From: a virus
DNA: 42,644 nucleotides
Direction: 5' to 3' (one strand)
IMG/VR virus record: IMGVR_UViG_3300029586_000007
Coordinates: 1-42,644 of that record
The number at the start of each line of letters is the position of its first letter. The stretch's first letter is position 1. A model generated the notes under the pieces. That model was not told where the DNA came from and did not search any database. It saw only the letters and a list, made by a program, of their open reading frames with translations. Made by a program: the position numbers and the translations under genes. Below, in pieces: positions 1 through 42,644 of the stretch.

Positions 1-123
1 GCAATTCCAAATTATCTGTTAATCTTCCTTGTAAAACGATCTTGTTAAGCACTTGTATTCCTCCGTTTGTTGCATTTTTTCAATCCATTATGCAATTTCG
101 CATGTTCTGATCGGGTCAGAACC
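1..123. repeat. Terminal duplication, copy 1 (identical to 42522..42644)
   Basis: A base-by-base comparison shows the first 123 nt equal the last 123 nt. This is a circular-assembly overlap or terminal redundancy. Confidence 0.97.
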
Positions 124-3837: not shown

Positions 3838-3925
3838 GTGTGTTGATGGTTTGTTATCGGTGTGTTATCGGTTTGTTGATTGTGTGTTATCTGTGTGTTG
3901 ATGGTCTGTTGTTGGAGTGTTACGC
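3838..3925. repeat. Eight tandem 11-bp iterons (GTNTGTTRWYG)
   Basis: GTGTGTTGATG GTTTGTTATCG GTGTGTTATCG GTTTGTTGATT GTGTGTTATCT GTGTGTTGATG GTCTGTTGTTG GAGTGTTACGC. The period is exactly 11 bp. Confidence 0.85.
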
Positions 3926-4141
3926 AGACGCTTCCGCCTGCACCAATCGGTTAGCCACATCGGCCACATGATAGCGACCGCCGGTTAAACGCGGAACACC
4001 ATCTAAATAACGCTGTACGGTACGATAACTAACGCCAAACCAGTCTTTTAACTGTTTTGTGGTAATATATTCGCACCCTGCGAACGTGCGCAAACGGCCT
4101 TCAACCGTGCGTCTGCGGTTGCTTAATTCTGTTGCTGTCAT
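3920..4141 (-). CDS. Small HTH DNA-binding protein (excisionase/MerR-like HTH_17 type)
   Basis: ITTKQLKDWFGVSYRTVQRYLDG helix-turn-helix. GGAGGG RBS. Flanked on both sides by the iterons. Confidence 0.8.
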   Translation of the reverse strand: MTATELSNRRRTVEGRLRTFAGCEYITTKQLKDWFGVSYRTVQRYLDGVPRLTGGRYHVADVANRLVQAEASA

Positions 4142-4327: not shown

Positions 4328-4357
4328 TTGTTCGCCCCTTCCCGACCGTGGTATAAT
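4328..4357 (+). promoter_or_regulatory. Plus-strand promoter with extended -10 (TGGTATAAT)
   Basis: TTGTTC 4328..4333, 18-nt spacer, TGGTATAAT 4349..4357, directly upstream of 4380..4610. Confidence 0.6.
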
Positions 4358-12146: not shown

Positions 12147-12185
12147 AAAAAAATCGGGTGCGACACACTTTCGCGCTTCGCACCC
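12147..12185 (-). terminator. Strong intrinsic terminator in the leader of the sigma-r4-like gene
   Basis: Minus strand: GGGUGCGAAGCGC-GAAA-GUGUGUCGCACCC, then GA and seven U. The G.U pairs form only in the minus-strand reading. Confidence 0.8.
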
Positions 12186-12286
12186 TATAAAAACACACCG
12201 TCCCACGTCCTCTACGTCTATACCCTATGTAGGTTCATAAGGCTTCGGGGAGCGCAGGAACAATGCGTTTTTTCAATTCTGATAGG

Positions 12287-12315
12287 ATTATACCATCTTT
12301 TGTGTTCGTCCGCAA
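12287..12315 (-). promoter_or_regulatory. Promoter with extended -10 (TGGTATAAT), directly after the endolysin stop
   Basis: TTGCGG (rc of 12310..12315)-17-TATAAT (rc of 12287..12292) with TG at 12294..12295. Confidence 0.6.
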
Positions 12316-12316
12316 C

Positions 12317-13054
12317 TTAGCCGTAAAGGTGCGCACGGTCGTTTATAACCAGCAGGCGCAGCAGGTCGGTCGTCAGTGCCAGCTTGCCCTGATCGTCACC
12401 GTGCAGAAAGCCCTTGTTCACCAGCTTCTGCACGGTCGCCTTGCCCCATTCAGGTACTGCGTCTACCGTGTTATATACCTTCTTGGCGTTCTCAGCGTTT
12501 GCAATCTCCTGCTTTGCGATTGCGCGGGTCTGTGATTCCGTCATGTCTTCAACCTCTTTCTCTGTCAGCATGGTTTTGAATTTCTGCCACAACTGTGGAT
12601 TGCGTACCCACGGTTCCGGGCACTGCTTGTGCGTCACATCGTAGTGACGGCACACGCGCGATGCCGGAATATGGTACTTTGCCATCAACTCACGGGTCAG
12701 CTTTGCGGCGCGCTTCATGGTCTCCTCGGGGATAACGTACACCCCGTTTCGGATAACGCTGCACATTTCAATGCCAATGGAATTAGCGTTCCGGCAGTCG
12801 TTGTAGTAGCTGCCGCCGCGTTCCCTGCCGCAATGCCATGCCGTGTCACCGTCTTTTACGCTCTGCACGATTCTTTCCGTGTCCACAAAATAATGTGCGC
12901 TTGCGTTCAAACCGCCCTCACGCGCGAAATAATCCGCGTTATTCTGTGCCGTATCGCCGTTGTTGGACGTAAAGTGCAGGCAAATCCAGTGAATCGGAAA
13001 CTCTCTGCCTTTACGGTAATTACTCGGATTGCACGCTTTGAACGGAATGCTCAT
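12317..13054 (-). CDS. Endolysin: N-acetylmuramoyl-L-alanine amidase (Amidase_2/PGRP type) with C-terminal binding domain
   Basis: IHWICLHFTSN...ASAHYFVD...AWHCG...NSIGIEMC. ATGA overlap with the holin stop at 13051..13054. The N-terminal track extension to 13204 is rejected. Confidence 0.9.
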   Translation of the reverse strand: MSIPFKACNPSNYRKGREFPIHWICLHFTSNNGDTAQNNADYFAREGGLNASAHYFVDTERIVQSVKDGDTAWHCGRERGGSYYNDCRNANSIGIEMCSVIRNGVYVIPEETMKRAAKLTRELMAKYHIPASRVCRHYDVTHKQCPEPWVRNPQLWQKFKTMLTEKEVEDMTESQTRAIAKQEIANAENAKKVYNTVDAVPEWGKATVQKLVNKGFLHGDDQGKLALTTDLLRLLVINDRAHLYG

Positions 13055-31148: not shown

Positions 31149-31177
31149 ATTATACGCCTAAGATATATTTGTGTAAA
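31149..31177 (-). promoter_or_regulatory. Near-consensus promoter for the RHH to terminase operon
   Basis: TTTACA (rc of 31172..31177)-17-TATAAT (rc of 31149..31154). Confidence 0.65.
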
Positions 31178-31247
31178 TATACACAATTCACAAATATACT
31201 TGCGCAAATATAGTTATTTTACCCATTGCTATACTTGCGCAAATATA
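31169..31247. promoter_or_regulatory. Operator cluster in the divergent control region
   Basis: Inverted repeat TTGTGTaaatatACACAA 31169..31186 over the -35. Exact 18-mer TATACTTGCGCAAATATA at 31195..31212 and 31230..31247, each inside a plus-strand promoter spacer (TTCACA-16-TATAGT; TTGCTA-17-TATACT). Confidence 0.6.
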
Positions 31248-31298
31248 TTATACTATAGTCACAGTAAAGGAAACGAACACCGAAAGGAAGTAATCAAT

Positions 31299-31529
31299 AT
31301 GACCGCAACCGAGAAAATCGCAATCGCAAAAATCGCAAGCCTGACCGATGATCAGCTTTTCGCCACATGGGAAAGCACCGAGAAGTACGATAGAGAAAAC
31401 CACATGGCGCAGGTAATGCTTCGCGGCTGGTGCATGGATGAGATCGAGAAGCGCTACCCGGAAGGCTTCGATGAATGGCTCGATTCTGACGCGCTGGACA
31501 GCGAGCTGCGCCACTACTGCATTAAGTAA
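31299..31529 (+). CDS. Hypothetical protein (plus-strand island)
   Basis: ATG 31299 with AAAGGAAG upstream. 76 aa. Confidence 0.7.
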   Translation: MTATEKIAIAKIASLTDDQLFATWESTEKYDRENHMAQVMLRGWCMDEIEKRYPEGFDEWLDSDALDSELRHYCIK

Positions 31530-31542
31530 GGAGGTAACTACA

Positions 31543-31653
31543 ATGGCCGCAACGCTCAACACCATGTGCATCAACTGCGCCAAACTCAACAAAAGCTGTA
31601 ACGGCACGACAAACCAAGTATGGACTGGCTGTATCTACAAGGAGGTAAAGTAA
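31543..31653 (+). CDS. 36-aa Cys-rich peptide
   Basis: TAAGGAGG RBS. MAATLNTMCINCAKLNKSCNGTTNQVWTGCIYKEVK. Confidence 0.5.
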   Translation: MAATLNTMCINCAKLNKSCNGTTNQVWTGCIYKEVK

Positions 31654-31654
31654 A

Positions 31655-31849
31655 ATGATGAATTTCGAACTGACCCGCAGCGATAGCCGCTGTGTAACAA
31701 CGGCTCTGACAACAGTTATCTGCAATCTTATCAGGGAGCAGAAAAACCCGAACACCACTGCCGGTCGCAGAGAGGTAGTCGAGGAAAGCATTGAGATGTA
31801 TAAGCAAGTACGCGCAAAGATCATAGATCAGTGCAAAGCTCAGGAATAA
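31655..31849 (+). CDS. Hypothetical protein
   Basis: AAGGAGG RBS. 64 aa. Confidence 0.65.
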   Translation: MMNFELTRSDSRCVTTALTTVICNLIREQKNPNTTAGRREVVEESIEMYKQVRAKIIDQCKAQE

Positions 31850-31915
31850 CGGTTCTCGCGGGGTTCATCCCAAAGCCCCGCAGCCACAAATTCATTTTTG
31901 AAAGGCGGTATCGAT

Positions 31916-32167
31916 ATGATAAAAGCAAAATTTGTCGGCAAGATATACTCTCCGGAAGGTTTTCCGGTTCTGACGTACTTATACAGAGGTCGGAAGTATG
32001 ATGTAATCGATTATGGCTGGCGAGGCGGAGAGCCGCTATCTTGGCAGCACAAGAACGAGCAAGCACACATCGACGATATGATTGATAAAGAATCCAAATC
32101 ATCCAGCGCAGCAGGCGAACCCGCTGAAATCGGTTTTGAAATCTTTTGGGAATCAGTAAATCAGTAA
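31916..32167 (+). CDS. Hypothetical protein
   Basis: ATG 31916 preferred over TTG 31898. 83 aa. Confidence 0.65.
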   Translation: MIKAKFVGKIYSPEGFPVLTYLYRGRKYDVIDYGWRGGEPLSWQHKNEQAHIDDMIDKESKSSSAAGEPAEIGFEIFWESVNQ

Positions 32168-32183
32168 TCAGGAGGTACAAACC

Positions 32184-32729
32184 ATGAACACCATCAAACA
32201 CACCGAGTACAAACACAACAACCGCCGCGTTATCCTCGACACCTGCGAACTCGCGCCGGGCAAATACGAGACTATGCTCCTGTACCCCAACGGCCACGAG
32301 ATTGCCTGCCGCACGGCACGCACCGAGGCGGATGCAATCGCAGACTTTGACGAGCTGCTGACCGCCTACCCGGCAGACACCAAGCCCGCAGCACCCAAGC
32401 CGCTTACCGGCAAGTACGCCAAGCTCCGCGACGATCTGCGCAAGGTGTACGAGATCGGCAAAGCCGCAGCCGCACAAGTTGAGGACGGCGGCACCTGCAA
32501 TTTAGATGCTCCCTCGCTCCTGCTCCCGCGCTGGCAGTCCGCCAAGATTGAGCAGGCTTGCAAGGAGGCCGGATGCGGCTGCTTTGAGTGGAAGTGCTTT
32601 AACCGGCGTTGGGTTATCTGCTTCCACATTCCCGGTCAGGCATACAAGCGCGAGACCGCAGCCGAGGCAATGACCAAGGCGCTTGCAGATATGGGCTATG
32701 ATTCCCTTACCTACTGCGCTATTGACTAA
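32184..32729 (+). CDS. Hypothetical two-domain protein with Cys-rich C-terminal domain
   Basis: CAGGAGG RBS. DGGTCNLDAPSLLLPRW...CKEAGCGCFEWKCF...GQAYKRETAAEAM block. No family assigned. Confidence 0.8.
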   Translation: MNTIKHTEYKHNNRRVILDTCELAPGKYETMLLYPNGHEIACRTARTEADAIADFDELLTAYPADTKPAAPKPLTGKYAKLRDDLRKVYEIGKAAAAQVEDGGTCNLDAPSLLLPRWQSAKIEQACKEAGCGCFEWKCFNRRWVICFHIPGQAYKRETAAEAMTKALADMGYDSLTYCAID

Positions 32730-32776
32730 CATAACCACCCGCCCCGGAGGTAACGAGGGCAGAAAGGAAAACTAAC

Positions 32777-32887
32777 ATGACTAAGCTAATCGCCATTATT
32801 GCCGCCCTGCTGCAGATCGTACCGGCCACCCGCACCATATCCGGCGAGGTGTACCGCATCGACCACCCGAACCGCGTCAAAGAATAA
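32777..32887 (+). CDS. 36-aa peptide with hydrophobic N-terminus (uncertain)
   Basis: MTKLIAIIAALLQIVPATRTISGEVYRIDHPNRVKE. AAAGGAAA lies upstream. Confidence 0.4.
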   Translation: MTKLIAIIAALLQIVPATRTISGEVYRIDHPNRVKE

Positions 32888-32908
32888 AATACCTTGTTTC
32901 TCTATGAC

Positions 32909-32946
32909 AAACCCCGCTCACCAAAGCCATAATGTGAGCGGGGTTT
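32909..32946. terminator. 13-bp hairpin separating the plus-strand island from the noncoding locus
   Basis: AAACCCCGCTCAC 32909..32921 pairs with GTGAGCGGGGTTT 32934..32946. U-tracts are weak in both directions. Confidence 0.55.
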
Positions 32947-32950
32947 ACCA

Positions 32951-34056
32951 TTATACGACTGTTTCGGTTCCGCAGGACTTGCACCTGCTTTCAGCTCTAT
33001 GCAAACCGGTATACCTCCACAGGGAGGTATGAACGCTTTCGTTGCGCCTGAACGCCGGGCTTTTACCGGTGATCTCTCAGCTGTCCAGAACGGTTGTATG
33101 AAATCCAGAGAGGTATTACCTCACTTTCGCAAGTTTACTTGTGTTTCCGTCCTGATGATTAGGTTGTTTATTGCAAGAGATAAACAGGCTGGTGCTCTTT
33201 CGTGGCGTGTACTTAGCCACCCGAAAGCGCCGTATCGGCTTTGTAACTTTGTACCGGTTGTTTTGCTCTCGGCTCTCTAAGTCCGTGTGAGTGCTTATCC
33301 GGTAGCACTCGCCCTCTCGATATAGGCTGTTCGGCGTCTCTGTCCGTCGTGTCACGCGTCTCTATCGGTGCGTAATCCGGCTGATTCCCTTTTTAGTTAC
33401 AGCGGGGAGCGACCCCGGTCGCGGCGTGCCTGCAAGCACCCGCTGAACTCTGCAAAGCCGTTGCAGCAGCTTCACAGGCGTTCGGAAACAGATTGTCCGT
33501 CTTTCCGGACTGTCAGAATATTATCGTCCTCGTTGGAGGCGTTTTGCTCCCTCCGCCTCATGCAGTTTCGGGAGCAGATCGCCTTGCACGTCGTCCGCCA
33601 TGCAAGGCTTGCCAGAAGTCCGCCACATTGCCCTTGGCTAAAAAGGTTCTGTGCGTTACCCGTCCGGCCCCATGAAGCCATCCGGGCATGTTTGCGGTGG
33701 CTGTTGCCCGCAGACACCGCATTCCATTCTCATTGTAGCGTAAATGTTATTACTCCGTCACCCTCATGCAGGCTTTGGAGCATATCGGCGCGCCGCGCAA
33801 AAGACACGCCGAAAGAATAGAAAGGATAATCAATGCCTTCGTTCCGCGAAAGGCGTTTTGCTCCTCTGCCCTCATGCAGACTTTGGAGCAGGTAAGCGGC
33901 AGGTCTCCCCACCGCTTCAAGTAGATATTGGGGTTAAACAGAAAGGCTTGTCACCCGTCAGCCCTCACGCAGGCTTCCGGGCGTGTACCCGCCTTTCGGC
34001 GGGCTGAAAGCGGAGGAACGAAACTCCGTGATTCCGCCCTTTAGGGCTTTTATCAC
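32951..34056 (-). ncRNA. Candidate large (~1.1 kb) structured noncoding RNA with five repeated hairpin modules
   Basis: No protein-like ORF or RBS. An extended -10 promoter at 34063..34071 points into it. It is full of GC-rich hairpins. Modules lie at 33546..33575, 33659..33686, 33752..33781, 33859..33890 and 33952..33983, with covarying stems and G.U pairs only in the minus-strand reading. Confidence 0.55.
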
Positions 34057-34062
34057 GATATC

Positions 34063-34071
34063 ATTATACCA
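34063..34071 (-). promoter_or_regulatory. Extended -10 element TGGTATAAT facing the noncoding locus
   Basis: The same 9-mer serves as a promoter at 4349..4357 and 12287..12295. There is no good -35, which extended -10 promoters tolerate. Confidence 0.55.
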
Positions 34072-34110
34072 CCATGTTTAGTATTATTGTGTATTGTGTT
34101 TTCCACAACG

Positions 34111-34503
34111 TTATGCACAGCCTGTGCGTACCCGTTCCACCGCCTGTAAAGCTCTTACATGCATTTCGCCCTTCACATGGGATTCGCTGTAATTCTGGTT
34201 ACGCGCCACGTCCCTCCATTTGCATCCGTTTACATACCGGTCGGTTAGCAACGTCCTGAGTTCGTTGCTCGGAACTTTTGCGATCGTGCTGATAATCTCA
34301 GCCCGCACCAGATCAAGCCGCTCCTGCTCTCGTTTGATTTGATTGTTCAACTCAATGTACGCATCCGCCTTATTCGCAGTAACATCACCGCCACCGCCCG
34401 GCGTTTCCTTAATAGTCGCCGTTGCACTCGTCGCTCGTGTCCATGCTTTTACACGAGCGTTTTCCAACGACGCAATGTAGTTCTCGATTCCTACGGCACG
34501 CAA
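34111..34503 (-). CDS. Sigma-like late transcriptional regulator (ArpU/RinA/DUF1492-like)
   Basis: C-terminal sigma-70 region-4-like LRTLLTDRYVNGCKWRDVARNQNYSESHVKGEMHVRAL. TTG start with a weak SD. Confidence 0.75.
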   Translation of the reverse strand: MRAVGIENYIASLENARVKAWTRATSATATIKETPGGGGDVTANKADAYIELNNQIKREQERLDLVRAEIISTIAKVPSNELRTLLTDRYVNGCKWRDVARNQNYSESHVKGEMHVRALQAVERVRTGCA

Positions 34504-42177: not shown

Positions 42178-42573
42178 TTAAAACGGCAGCTCGTCGAATT
42201 CTTCATCCGTTGAGATAAAATCGCTTTCTTCCTGCTTCTGTGGCTTTCCCTCGCTCTTGCCGCCGCAGAAGTCGATGCTTTCGCACTGCACTTCCCAAGA
42301 GCGGCGCTTATTGCCGTTCTTGTCCTGCCAGTCACGGCTTTCCAAACGGCCGGAAACAATGCACATATCGCCCTTGTGGAACCATGTGCTTGCGTGCTCT
42401 GCCAGCTTGCCCCACAGGACAACGGAACAGAAGTCGCTCTGATATTCTCCGTTGTTATCCTTTCTGCTGCGTTGTACCGCAATCGTACCGCTTGCTACAG
42501 CCGTATTAGACTGCGTGTGTCGCAATTCCAAATTATCTGTTAATCTTCCTTGTAAAACGATCTTGTTAAGCAC
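42178..42573 (-). CDS. ssb: Single-stranded DNA-binding protein
   Basis: OB-fold N-terminus MLNKIVLQGRLTDNLELR and acidic tail ending DELPF. Its first 52 nt recur at 1..52 because of the terminal overlap. Confidence 0.93.
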   Translation of the reverse strand: MLNKIVLQGRLTDNLELRHTQSNTAVASGTIAVQRSRKDNNGEYQSDFCSVVLWGKLAEHASTWFHKGDMCIVSGRLESRDWQDKNGNKRRSWEVQCESIDFCGGKSEGKPQKQEESDFISTDEEFDELPF

Positions 42574-42644
42574 TTGTATTCCTCCGTTTGTTGCATTTTT
42601 TCAATCCATTATGCAATTTCGCATGTTCTGATCGGGTCAGAACC
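42522..42644. repeat. Terminal duplication, copy 2 (identical to 1..123)
   Basis: It carries the ssb start and the 3' end of the HNH gene a second time. Confidence 0.97.

Follow-up and report, generated by a model that had tools for sequence, protein, structure and literature searches.

A candidate large structured non-coding RNA with repeated hairpin modules between a late regulator gene and the packaging genes of a phage

What is encoded by more than one kilobase of a tightly packed phage genome in which no believable gene can be found? The question is raised by positions 32951–34071 of the IMG/VR virus record IMGVR_UViG_3300029586_000007, which was analysed here over its whole length of 42,644 nucleotides (the window). 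An initial annotation, made from the letters of the sequence, had proposed that this stretch has its own promoter, holds no genuine open reading frame (ORF) and gives rise to a large structured non-coding RNA (ncRNA) from the minus strand. Our covariation and ORF tests support this proposal, and window positions 32904–34057 are very probably the gene, on the minus strand, for a highly structured ncRNA of ~1.15 kb. All features below lie on the minus strand unless another strand is given. Read from 5' to 3', the conserved plan of the locus begins with a promoter, the sequence TATYGTG, a hairpin that we call P1, a GNRA or UUCG hairpin, and a series of modules split by conserved spacer hairpins. 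It continues with the hairpin CUGACRG-stem-GAAAGA-stem in one or two copies, then a central domain, a 3' core and a terminator.

Five hairpin modules share one two-tier architecture, in which each displays a purine-rich 3x3 internal loop with a central A.G and a GCRYGA hexaloop. They were searched for with R1, a covariance model trained on 50 distinct instances of the module, four of them from the window, which was run over the whole 42.6 kb with filters off. R1 returned exactly five matches, all on the minus strand within 33541–33987: module 1 (33948–33987; CGCCCG-GAA-GCCU-GCGUGA-GGGC-UGA-CGGGUG; 56.9 bits), module 2 (33855–33894; UGCUCC-AAA-GUCU-GCAUGA-GGGC-AGA-GGAGCA; 55.7 bits), module 3 (33747–33786; GCUCC-AAA-GCCU-GCAUGA-GGGU-GAC-GGAGU; 51.6 bits), module 4 (33653–33692; CCCG-GAU-GGCU-UCAUGG-GGCC-GGA-CGGG; 53.7 bits) and module 5 (33541–33580; CUCCC-GAA-ACU-GCAUGA-GGC-GGA-GGGAG; 22.5 bits, E 1.8e-4), a variant with a 3-bp inner stem. 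The next best match scored 12.1 bits (E 0.22). The type of module 5 was absent from the training set of R1, yet it was recovered. The initial annotation had written out four of the modules and located the fifth as a weaker copy, and its readings agree exactly with ours; the start-to-start spacing of the modules, estimated there as ~90–115 nt, measures 93, 108, 94 and 112 nt. A repeat search groups the modules as direct-repeat families D1 and D2.

That the paired structure of the modules is under constraint is supported by covariation. The 50 instances were placed in a gap-free alignment, scored on the two-tier structure as originally proposed, and compared with 500 shuffles. Standard pairs fill 97.8% of the cells, against 84.9% in the shuffles, and both-side changes occur in 76 cells, against 32.5; the observed values were reached by none of the 500 shuffles. 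In a control in which the partners were slid by one to three columns, only 27–51% of cells paired. The covarying outer stems that had been pointed out in the five copies are thereby borne out. Within the inner stem, pairs 14–27, 16–25 and 17–24 are nearly invariant, whereas pair 15–26 covaries through five pair types (GC 19, CG 16, UG 11, GU 3, AU 1). Compensatory changes are also seen among relatives, where GGCU/GGCC and CCCG/CGGG of module 4 become GACU/GGUC and CCCA/UGGG, and GCU/GGC in the inner stem of module 5 becomes ACU/GGU. When R1 was run over 100 unrelated phage loci, no module was found except in one member of the RNA family itself, which argues that the module is specific to this family. 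The same scan ruled out that the module is part of the widespread GAAAGA hairpin element. Loop–loop kissing via CRYG, and a pseudoknot between the 5' flank and the loop, were also considered and rejected: both are inconsistent across lineages, and CACG loops cannot self-pair.

The modules account for less than half of the conserved element, and in the full alignment RNAalifold finds covarying helices spread along the whole RNA. The 5' hairpin P1 (34027–34057) has an outer stem CGUGAU/AUCACG and an inner hairpin GCCC-UAAA-GGGC. Among 64 homologs, RNAalifold detects covariation in both its outer stem (CG52/UG12, AU48/GC16) and its inner stem (CG39/UA10, CG49/UG15), and the equivalents in divergent families are CGUGG/CCACG and GCUCC/GGAGC. 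Module 1 is preceded by a GNRA hairpin, CCCGCC-GAAA-GGCGGG (33987–34004), and a divergent family has CCCCCGC-UUCG-GCGGGGG at the same position. The central region (33094–33494) contains conserved helices such as 33467–33477/33450–33460, 33289–33310 and 33202–33220. On alignment A1, RNAalifold finds there an 11-bp helix with four covarying pairs and a 5-bp helix with three, and these counts are conservative, as MAFFT misaligns the divergent family in this region.

The best-conserved part of the RNA is the 3' core (32953–33093), in which six helices occupy the last 141 nt before the terminator. Its parts include a GNRA loop on a 3-bp stem, the hairpin AUACCUCC-CUGU-GGAGGUAU, a T-loop-like hairpin with a heptaloop (GCAGG-UGCAAGU-CCUGC) and a closing helix. 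We built a model (R2) and an alignment (A4) of the 3' core from 54 loci, re-aligned with Infernal. Both-side changes were found at 19 of its 31 pairs, which none of 500 shuffles matched and of which the slid controls gave at most five, and 95.1% of the cells were paired, against 80.3% in shuffles; these figures are upper bounds, since A4 was fitted to the structure under test and the sequences are related. The variants of the GNRA hairpin can be read in the raw sequences with no fitting at all (UGA-GAGA-UCA, GGC-GCAA-GCC, CGG-GAAA-CCG and GGA-GGAA-UCC), so that a GNRA loop is kept on a 3-bp stem that covaries fully. Likewise, the closing helix differs by lineage (GGUUU.../...AACC, CCCCCUC/GAGGGGG, UGCAGCC/GGCUGCA), and the invariant heptaloop UGCRAKU is carried on changing stems (GCAGG/CCUGC, GUCGG/CCGGC, ACGCGG/CCGUGU). 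Two further hairpins of the initial annotation, 33011–33030 and 33988–34003, are both real, and the former covaries.

Which strand carries the RNA is decided by the G.U pairs. Several pairs are mostly G.U (GU:31, UG:48, GU:27, GU:22), and their plus-strand equivalents would be A.C mismatches. G.U pairs are abundant in the modules and in the 3' core, in line with the minus-strand RNA that had been claimed on these grounds. Folding energy alone cannot decide the strand: a 1000-nt segment folds better than its shuffles on both, with z-scores of −3.35 (minus) and −2.85 (plus). The orientation of the promoter and the terminator agrees with the minus strand.

The lack of a protein gene was examined with ten ORFs of the window (52–150 aa), each followed through 37–57 spanning homologs. 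None of the ten is conserved, and frameshifts or stops interrupt them in most copies. Each codon position has about as many variable columns as the others (such as 63/64/64 or 52/52/52), and independent gene callers leave ~1.2 kb empty behind the regulator gene in most contigs with an identical regulator. The description of the stretch as having no believable gene thus holds, and no ORF under codon-level constraint was seen among the ten.

The promoter of the RNA is suggested by an extended −10 element, TGGTATAAT, at 34063–34071, 40 nt past the stop codon (34111) of the regulator gene. The window has three copies of this 9-mer, against 0.12 expected; they lie at 4349(+), 12287(−) and 34063(−), as had been noticed at the outset. 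The −35 region of the RNA promoter holds the tandem direct repeat CACAATA-CACAATA (34085–34098), which has one match in the window against 0.00 expected and is a candidate binding site for the upstream regulator. All lineages have a −10 of the form TGnTATAAT or TGnTATACT at the same place, followed by the conserved TATYGTG start region, and transcription of the RNA would start near 34055. We considered TATCGT as a lambda-like sigma-dependent pause element and dropped the idea, because it lies only 3 nt from the −10, too close for the analogy. A side observation concerns the second minus-strand copy of the promoter (~12150–12295): the next ~90–140 nt, which may represent an attenuator or a small RNA, are free of ORFs and end in a GC-rich hairpin and U-run, GGGUGCGAAGCGCGAAAGUGUGUCGCACCCGAUUUUUUU.

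At its 3' end the RNA is closed by a terminator hairpin (32904–32951), AAACCCCGCUCAC...GUGAGCGGGGUUU and then GUCAU, with UUUGU following its arms. The initial annotation had placed a 13-bp hairpin here; the hairpin is present, and it is larger than was stated, having arms of 18 nt (32904–32921 and 32934–32951) that are 89% complementary. A strong hairpin with a U-run closes the locus in all lineages, its sequence in the type represented by locus L021 being AAAAGCACCUCCC...GGGAAGGUGCUUUUGCUU. Plus-strand genes at 31200–32888 converge on the hairpin of the window, which could terminate them too.

How widespread is this RNA? We retrieved homologs through the upstream protein (15 loci) and through a 20-nt module pattern (98 stretches in IMG/VR), and ~100 related gut-virome contigs share the locus. 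Most loci are 88–97% identical over the full length, and a second and a third lineage have the identical layout with merely patchy nucleotide similarity. The 64 distinct full-length copies measure 822–1194 nt. Module cores, counted in them by a regular expression, number five in 34 copies, four in 18, three in seven, two in four and one in a single copy, the contig L258, where two modules can be recognised by eye. The endpoints of deletions fall within modules, and one chimeric module joins the 5' half of module 1 to the 3' half of module 2, which suggests that the array changes by unequal recombination. BLAST of the region against cultured phages (INPHARED) gave no match, and the phage itself has tiny matches only. 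Bacterial genome contigs were scanned with a two-module pattern, CTGCAYGAGG..GNCTGCAYGAGG, which was too loose: the matches listed are chance matches in high-G+C genomes, the two with Clostridia names are coding repeats, and none of those listed has blastn similarity to the RNA. Away from the locus, the related phage contig L258 also contains a GP20-b RNA at 1357–1417 (−) (RF03003, 57.6 bits).

Is the RNA a member of a known family? Scanning the whole window with cmscan against Rfam 15 at gathering thresholds gave no match, and a second scan with relaxed filters, which allowed E<=10 on either strand of 32600–34400, gave none either. The latter covered GOLLD, ROOL, HEARO, OLE and raiA, the families that had been singled out for this check, and the option of a new class raised in the initial annotation therefore stands. 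The RNA fits the description of an ornate ncRNA, being 0.82–1.19 kb long, non-coding, and marked by covariation in the 3' core and other helices as well as in the modules, and its status as a previously uncatalogued family of large structured phage ncRNA is well supported.

Bacterial and phage RNAs of more than ~500 nt with a complex conserved structure are a handful (GOLLD, ROOL, OLE, HEARO, raiA and a few others), and to our knowledge each of them proved unusual once studied. The expression of GOLLD rises with lytic growth, to which the position of our RNA at a late promoter may be likened. The RNA further resembles GOLLD and ROOL in being phage-borne and non-coding, in its length of several hundred to ~1000 nt, and in its many covarying helices with GNRA and T-loop-type elements. 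It differs from them in that no covariance model matches it at E<=10, in its internal array of two to five near-identical modules of variable number, and in its fixed place between a late regulator gene and the packaging genes. GOLLD and ROOL have been shown by cryo-EM to be RNA-only homo-oligomers (PMC12286853). A second likeness is to the protein-titrating sponge RNAs CsrB and RsmZ, in which a near-identical hairpin module with a conserved loop is likewise repeated in variable copy number. Unlike in these sponges, the loop is GCRYGA rather than A(N)GGA, structured spacers set the modules ~100 nt apart, and a large, conserved, non-repetitive 3' core is present.

The gene directly upstream of the RNA promoter (34111–34503) encodes the late regulator, a protein of 130 aa with a helix-turn-helix like that of sigma-70 region 4. 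For the window protein itself, the matches listed are phrog_36 'transcriptional regulator' (E 2.8e-12) and, weakly, Phage_antitermQ (PF06530; 18.1 bits, E 0.0027), which is below the cut-off of 26 bits; a profile search of the PDB gave weak sigma region-4 matches only. Family-wide counts, made on nine members that include distant ones from cultured Clostridia phages, are five for Phage_antitermQ (best 7.9e-4), four for DUF1492 (best 2.2e-6) and four for Sigma70_r4 (best 5.3e-6), both of the latter outscoring Phage_antitermQ. The regulator homologs that could be retrieved for alignment are all at least 64% identical. In the Ltr superfamily of late activators of Gram-positive phages, LtrA has Sigma70_r4 and LtrB has DUF1492, and these activators bind direct repeats just behind their own gene (PMC3753634). 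At the family level, our regulator has Sigma70_r4 or DUF1492, a gene upstream of the packaging genes and direct repeats after that gene, and by its domains and gene order the family belongs to the LtrA/LtrB classes of late activators.

The surroundings of the RNA are strictly ordered. In all related loci whose 5' flank is long enough, the regulator precedes the RNA on the same strand. Downstream, likewise on that strand and at a distance of 0.3–4 kb, come genes for a PAPS-reductase-like protein and/or TerL in all 63 loci in which such genes were detected. The stretch between RNA and late genes holds variable cargo, some of it on the opposite strand. The RNA accompanies two unrelated types of TerL, as judged by identities of 97–100% against 26–29%. 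The packaging operon of the window has a sigma-70 promoter of its own, TTTACA-17-TATAAT followed by N3-TATCGT (~31150–31185), ahead of the first gene of the packaging module (31122 downstream). The same TATAAT-N3-TATCGT arrangement occurs at the RNA promoter. The plus-strand cargo genes start back-to-back with this second promoter, and the first gene behind the promoter, which is small and by eye ribbon-helix-helix-like, heads the PAPS-reductase-like/terminase operon. The L021 lineage has a candidate promoter, TTGCTT-17-TATCAT, behind the RNA terminator and ahead of the same small, possibly ribbon-helix-helix-like gene. In L021 (~12440–12480), three 8-nt direct repeats TTGCTTAG, 12 nt apart and directly past the RNA terminator, overlap that candidate promoter and may be an operator. 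By protein similarity, the cultured relatives nearest to the phage are phages of Blautia, Clostridium, Ruminococcus and Oscillospiraceae, and its host is probably a gut member of the Clostridia; the RNA family occurs in tailed phages of roughly 40–50 kb, likely of gut Clostridia.

We compared the locus with those of four distant relatives of the regulator, in Ruminococcus phage NatCom_28274, Oscillospiraceae phage NatCom_27610, phage NatCom_3357 and Acetoanaerobium phage ANDSL2_ph1. All four have a TATAAT-type −10 within ~100–140 nt of the regulator gene. Tandem repeats of CRCAATA or GATACAC are found behind the regulator gene in divergent relatives, and those of the Acetoanaerobium phage, GATACAC-AAT-GATACAC, are ahead of the −10. 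In all four, a leader of 30–60 nt is followed by a GC-rich hairpin and U-run (an example being GCCUCAUGGGA-GCAA-UCCCGUGGGGC-UUUUCUCAUGCC) and then by the ribosome-binding site of HNH/terminase genes, and there is no long RNA. The short leader at this very spot suggests that the RNA of the window takes the place of the leader of the late unit, enlarged from tens of nucleotides to ~1.1 kb. The terminators of short leaders in three loci (L373 ~3890–3925, L374 ~3890–3930, L375 ~1600–1635) have a conserved base, GCCU...GGGC, and then UUUUCUYAUGCC. The pairs of this base (G-C, C-G, C-G, U.G) are the same four as in the inner stem of the window modules, and the tail of the window terminator, GGGGUUUGUCAU, resembles UUUUCUYAUGCC. 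It is a speculative idea that the modules were derived from duplicated leader-terminator hairpins.

What could be the role of such an RNA? On balance, we favour the explanation that it is a new large structured phage ncRNA, the first product of the late unit, which acts in trans through several binding sites. As it fills the leader position of the regulator's distant relatives, it is probably the first, and presumably the most abundant, product of the late transcription unit. Transcription would start at the extended −10 directly behind the late regulator gene, and the RNA's own terminator would free it as a discrete molecule. The 3' core would fold into a compact tertiary scaffold, and the repeated modules would present an identical 3x3 loop and hexaloop that could bind several copies of one partner, either a protein or another copy of the RNA. 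During phage development the RNA would then be a multivalent sponge or platform that works in trans. We put forward action as a discrete multivalent RNA in trans only tentatively. It is favoured by the terminator of the RNA together with the relatives that manage without such an RNA, by the separate sigma-70 promoter of the packaging operon with a similar candidate in the L021 type, by the variable and partly antisense cargo that separates the RNA from the late genes, by the movement of the RNA among phages with two unrelated types of TerL, and by the unequal recombination through which module number varies. That related phages have a short leader and terminator at the same position would make the RNA an add-on.

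Several observations weigh against this explanation. The homologs fall into ~5 lineages, are close relatives and derive for the most part from a single virome data set, so that the shuffle controls overstate significance, as do the upper-bound figures of the 3' core. Some relatives have lost modules down to about two, and five-fold valency is thus not essential. The strict synteny would fit a leader acting in cis equally well, and if the CACAATA repeat is the sole site of the regulator, the late genes must be read through the RNA. The start of transcription, the efficiency of termination and the timing of expression are all predictions.

The main rival is such a cis-acting leader of the late operon, that is, an expanded 5' leader that would help RNA polymerase past the RNA's own terminator and those downstream, or time late expression, together with the Q-/Ltr-like regulator, by analogy with the lambda nut and Q leaders, HK022 put, EAR, or conAn1 with conAn2. 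The lambda late leader is 194 nt long, and we know of no conserved structure or function for it. Its layout (the pR'-tR' leader or '6S RNA' of Q antitermination) is shared by our locus, in which a promoter lies directly past the late regulator gene and a terminator before co-oriented late genes, with putative regulator-binding repeats at the promoter and the short-leader arrangement in relatives. Unlike the lambda leader, the RNA is strongly structured and 0.8–1.2 kb long, an extra promoter precedes the late operon, and the regulator is sigma-region-4/DUF1492-like with only sub-threshold similarity to Q. The put element of HK022 is ~70 nt, with two stem-loops close behind the promoter and a sequence resembling that of other put elements, and makes RNA polymerase resistant to terminators in cis via the zinc-binding domain of beta'. 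A put of the HK022 type was rejected for our RNA: the HK022 immunity region (L346) has none of its conserved motifs, and the two differ more than 10-fold in size. Structured RNAs heading a long operon of a mobile element are nevertheless represented by HK022 put, EAR and conAn2 (PMC9378689, PMC8191782), and conAn2, an RNA antiterminator of 260–600 nt beside a small protein gene with ConAn1 as its partner, sets a precedent both for size and for an RNA behind a small protein gene, here that of the regulator (PMC8191782). A cis role would also account for the invariant place of the RNA between the regulator and the co-oriented packaging genes in all 63 loci, for the order promoter, short leader, terminator and late genes in relatives, which implies control of read-through, for the weak Phage_antitermQ matches in five of the nine regulator-family members, and for the tandem CACAATA that is unique to the RNA promoter; the widespread GAAAGA hairpin, too, is found downstream of the Q gene of phiEt88, in the early-operon leader of a Stenotrophomonas phage, and often before terminators. 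We nevertheless consider a cis-acting leader less likely than action in trans. A leader of 30–60 nt suffices in relatives that keep the promoter-terminator layout without the RNA, so read-through does not require an ornate structure of 1 kb. A consensus-like promoter belongs to the packaging operon itself, and the late genes come after as much as 3.7 kb of variable, partly antisense cargo. The size of the RNA and its GNRA/T-loop architecture go far beyond put or EAR, and the RNA is much larger than conAn2 as well.

The remaining explanations are much less probable. Five direct repeats at intervals of ~100 bp, close ahead of the packaging module and in a region where both strands fold better than shuffles, might be protein sites on double-stranded DNA, such as a terminase pac/cos site or the iterons of a replication origin. 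We regard such a DNA-level element as very unlikely, since covariation keeps the hairpins rather than the sequence, G.U pairs are seen on the minus strand only, GNRA tetraloops are kept on covarying stems, a conserved promoter and terminator bound the locus, the modules are under half of what is conserved, and the presence of two unrelated terminases argues against a site of packaging specificity. Slightly less credible still is an array of guide RNAs (CRISPR- or TIGR-like), or a mimic of CRISPR repeats with anti-CRISPR function, whose units would be processed into small guide or decoy RNAs. Tandem hairpin units in variable number would suit such an array, and TIGR 'stem-loop arrays', with palindromic stems around internal sequences, do occur in phages; TIGR arrays consist of ~36-nt units with two variable spacers of 8–12 nt, box C/D flanks and an adjacent tas gene for a Nop-domain protein (PMC12045711). 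The modules here are 93–112 nt apart rather than 36 nt, their interior between the outer stems is conserved and paired with no variable spacer, and the intervening sequences are themselves conserved hairpins. Searches of the flanking genes with Pfam, PHROG and NCBIfam found no Nop domain (Tas), no cas-like match was seen among the neighbours scanned, and there was no Rfam CRISPR-DR match, so that both a TIGR-Tas and a CRISPR array were rejected and the modules are not the CRISPR repeats that the initial annotation had allowed for. Least probable of all is a decayed or overlooked coding region, a pseudogene or a set of small ORFs in which the hairpins would be incidental. Mechanical ORFs of 52–150 aa are present on both strands, but the disruption of every ORF tested in most homologs and the even variation over codon positions speak against it, as do the 88–97% conservation among close relatives with compensatory pair changes, and Pfam and PHROG scans of the neighbours point to no missing domain.

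We return to the GAAAGA hairpin, which links the RNA to many other phages. The hairpin CUGACA-GUCCG-GAAAGA-CGGAC (33495–33516) is a copy of a 24-nt motif, UGACRG-[5 bp]-GARAGA-[5 bp]-CA, and within the RNA family its stem covaries (CG34/UA28, CG43/UA19). A pattern search with this hairpin matched more than 119 viral contigs of diverse environmental origin, where by our own estimate less than one would be expected by chance, and BLAST with a 30-mer retrieved 66 records of cultured phages, of Ralstonia, Xanthomonas, Stenotrophomonas, Erwinia, Rhodobacter, Bacteroides and Bacillus. Further copies were located in loci L234–L343, at 3501–4330 of L344, at 2501–2522 of both L347 and L348, and at 2501–2528 and ~2605–2628 of L349. 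The motif thus ranges over phages of Proteobacteria, Bacteroidota and Firmicutes, often in two to four clustered copies. Pair 2 of its stem takes the forms CG 102, GC 16, UA 8, UG 8, GU 6 and AU 5, with G.U seen 22 times and A.C 6 times; conservation extends to the flanks UGACRG and CA and no further.

The motif commonly sits directly ahead of a terminator or 15–30 nt ahead of a start codon. Several copies are present in the early-left leader of Stenotrophomonas phage BUCT708. Erwinia phage phiEt88 has the motif downstream of its Q gene and Ralstonia phage GP4 upstream of its HNH/terS genes, and in Bacteroides phage BS-TP2 it is ~5 nt ahead of what is, by eye, a tRNA-like sequence that the record leaves unannotated. 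The motif is absent from Rfam 15: scans of unrelated loci with the GAAAGA hairpin matched only tRNAs, a few unrelated small RNAs and, below threshold, RprA. A literature search by motif sequence returned full matches only to a random synthetic spacer, and no description of the motif was found. A bolder and more doubtful proposal, which we hold to be possible, is that two things are true jointly: that the RNA, made in bulk from the late promoter, is a machine or scaffold of a new phage RNA class in which a compact GNRA/T-loop core bears a variable array of identical two-tier hairpins, and that the 24-nt hairpin embedded in it is a universal phage RNA signal. The machine might be a multivalent decoy against a host factor or a defence system, or might self-assemble as ROOL and GOLLD do. 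The hairpin, whose stem covaries and which recurs immediately ahead of tRNA genes, ahead of terminators and in the leaders of operons, might be read by a conserved host machine such as RNA polymerase or Nus factors, or an RNA-processing enzyme. Its presence in phages of three bacterial phyla may mark a general, hitherto undescribed RNA-level signal in phage operons.

The RNA itself is of interest beyond its novelty. With a defined promoter and terminator, a fixed place at the switch to late expression, and natural variants that have ~2–5 modules, its function should be experimentally approachable. Should the modules turn out to bind a factor of the host or of the phage, they would represent a new means by which phages control their own development or counter the host. 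Recognition of the family also helps the annotation of gut phage genomes, in which this stretch is now left blank or mis-called as ORFs.

Three minor observations may be added. In two of the loci with the GAAAGA hairpin (L253 and L320), tRNA matches of 114–124 nt, that is, tRNA genes with insertions, form arrays interspersed with tandem GAAAGA hairpins. The sub-threshold Rfam matches to RprA, an Hfq-binding small RNA, lie at 300–401 of L262, 405–506 of L285 and 282–395 of L343 (minus), with 37–43 bits against a gathering threshold of 70. These leaders belong to Stenotrophomonas-type phages and carry GAAAGA hairpins, and their 3' half, AUUGCUGUGUGUAGUCUUUGCC plus a terminator, appears RprA-like. 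Lastly, the ends of the window (1–123 and 42522–42644) are an exact direct repeat of 123 nt, which indicates that the window holds the complete phage genome, of ~42.5 kb and either circular or terminally redundant.

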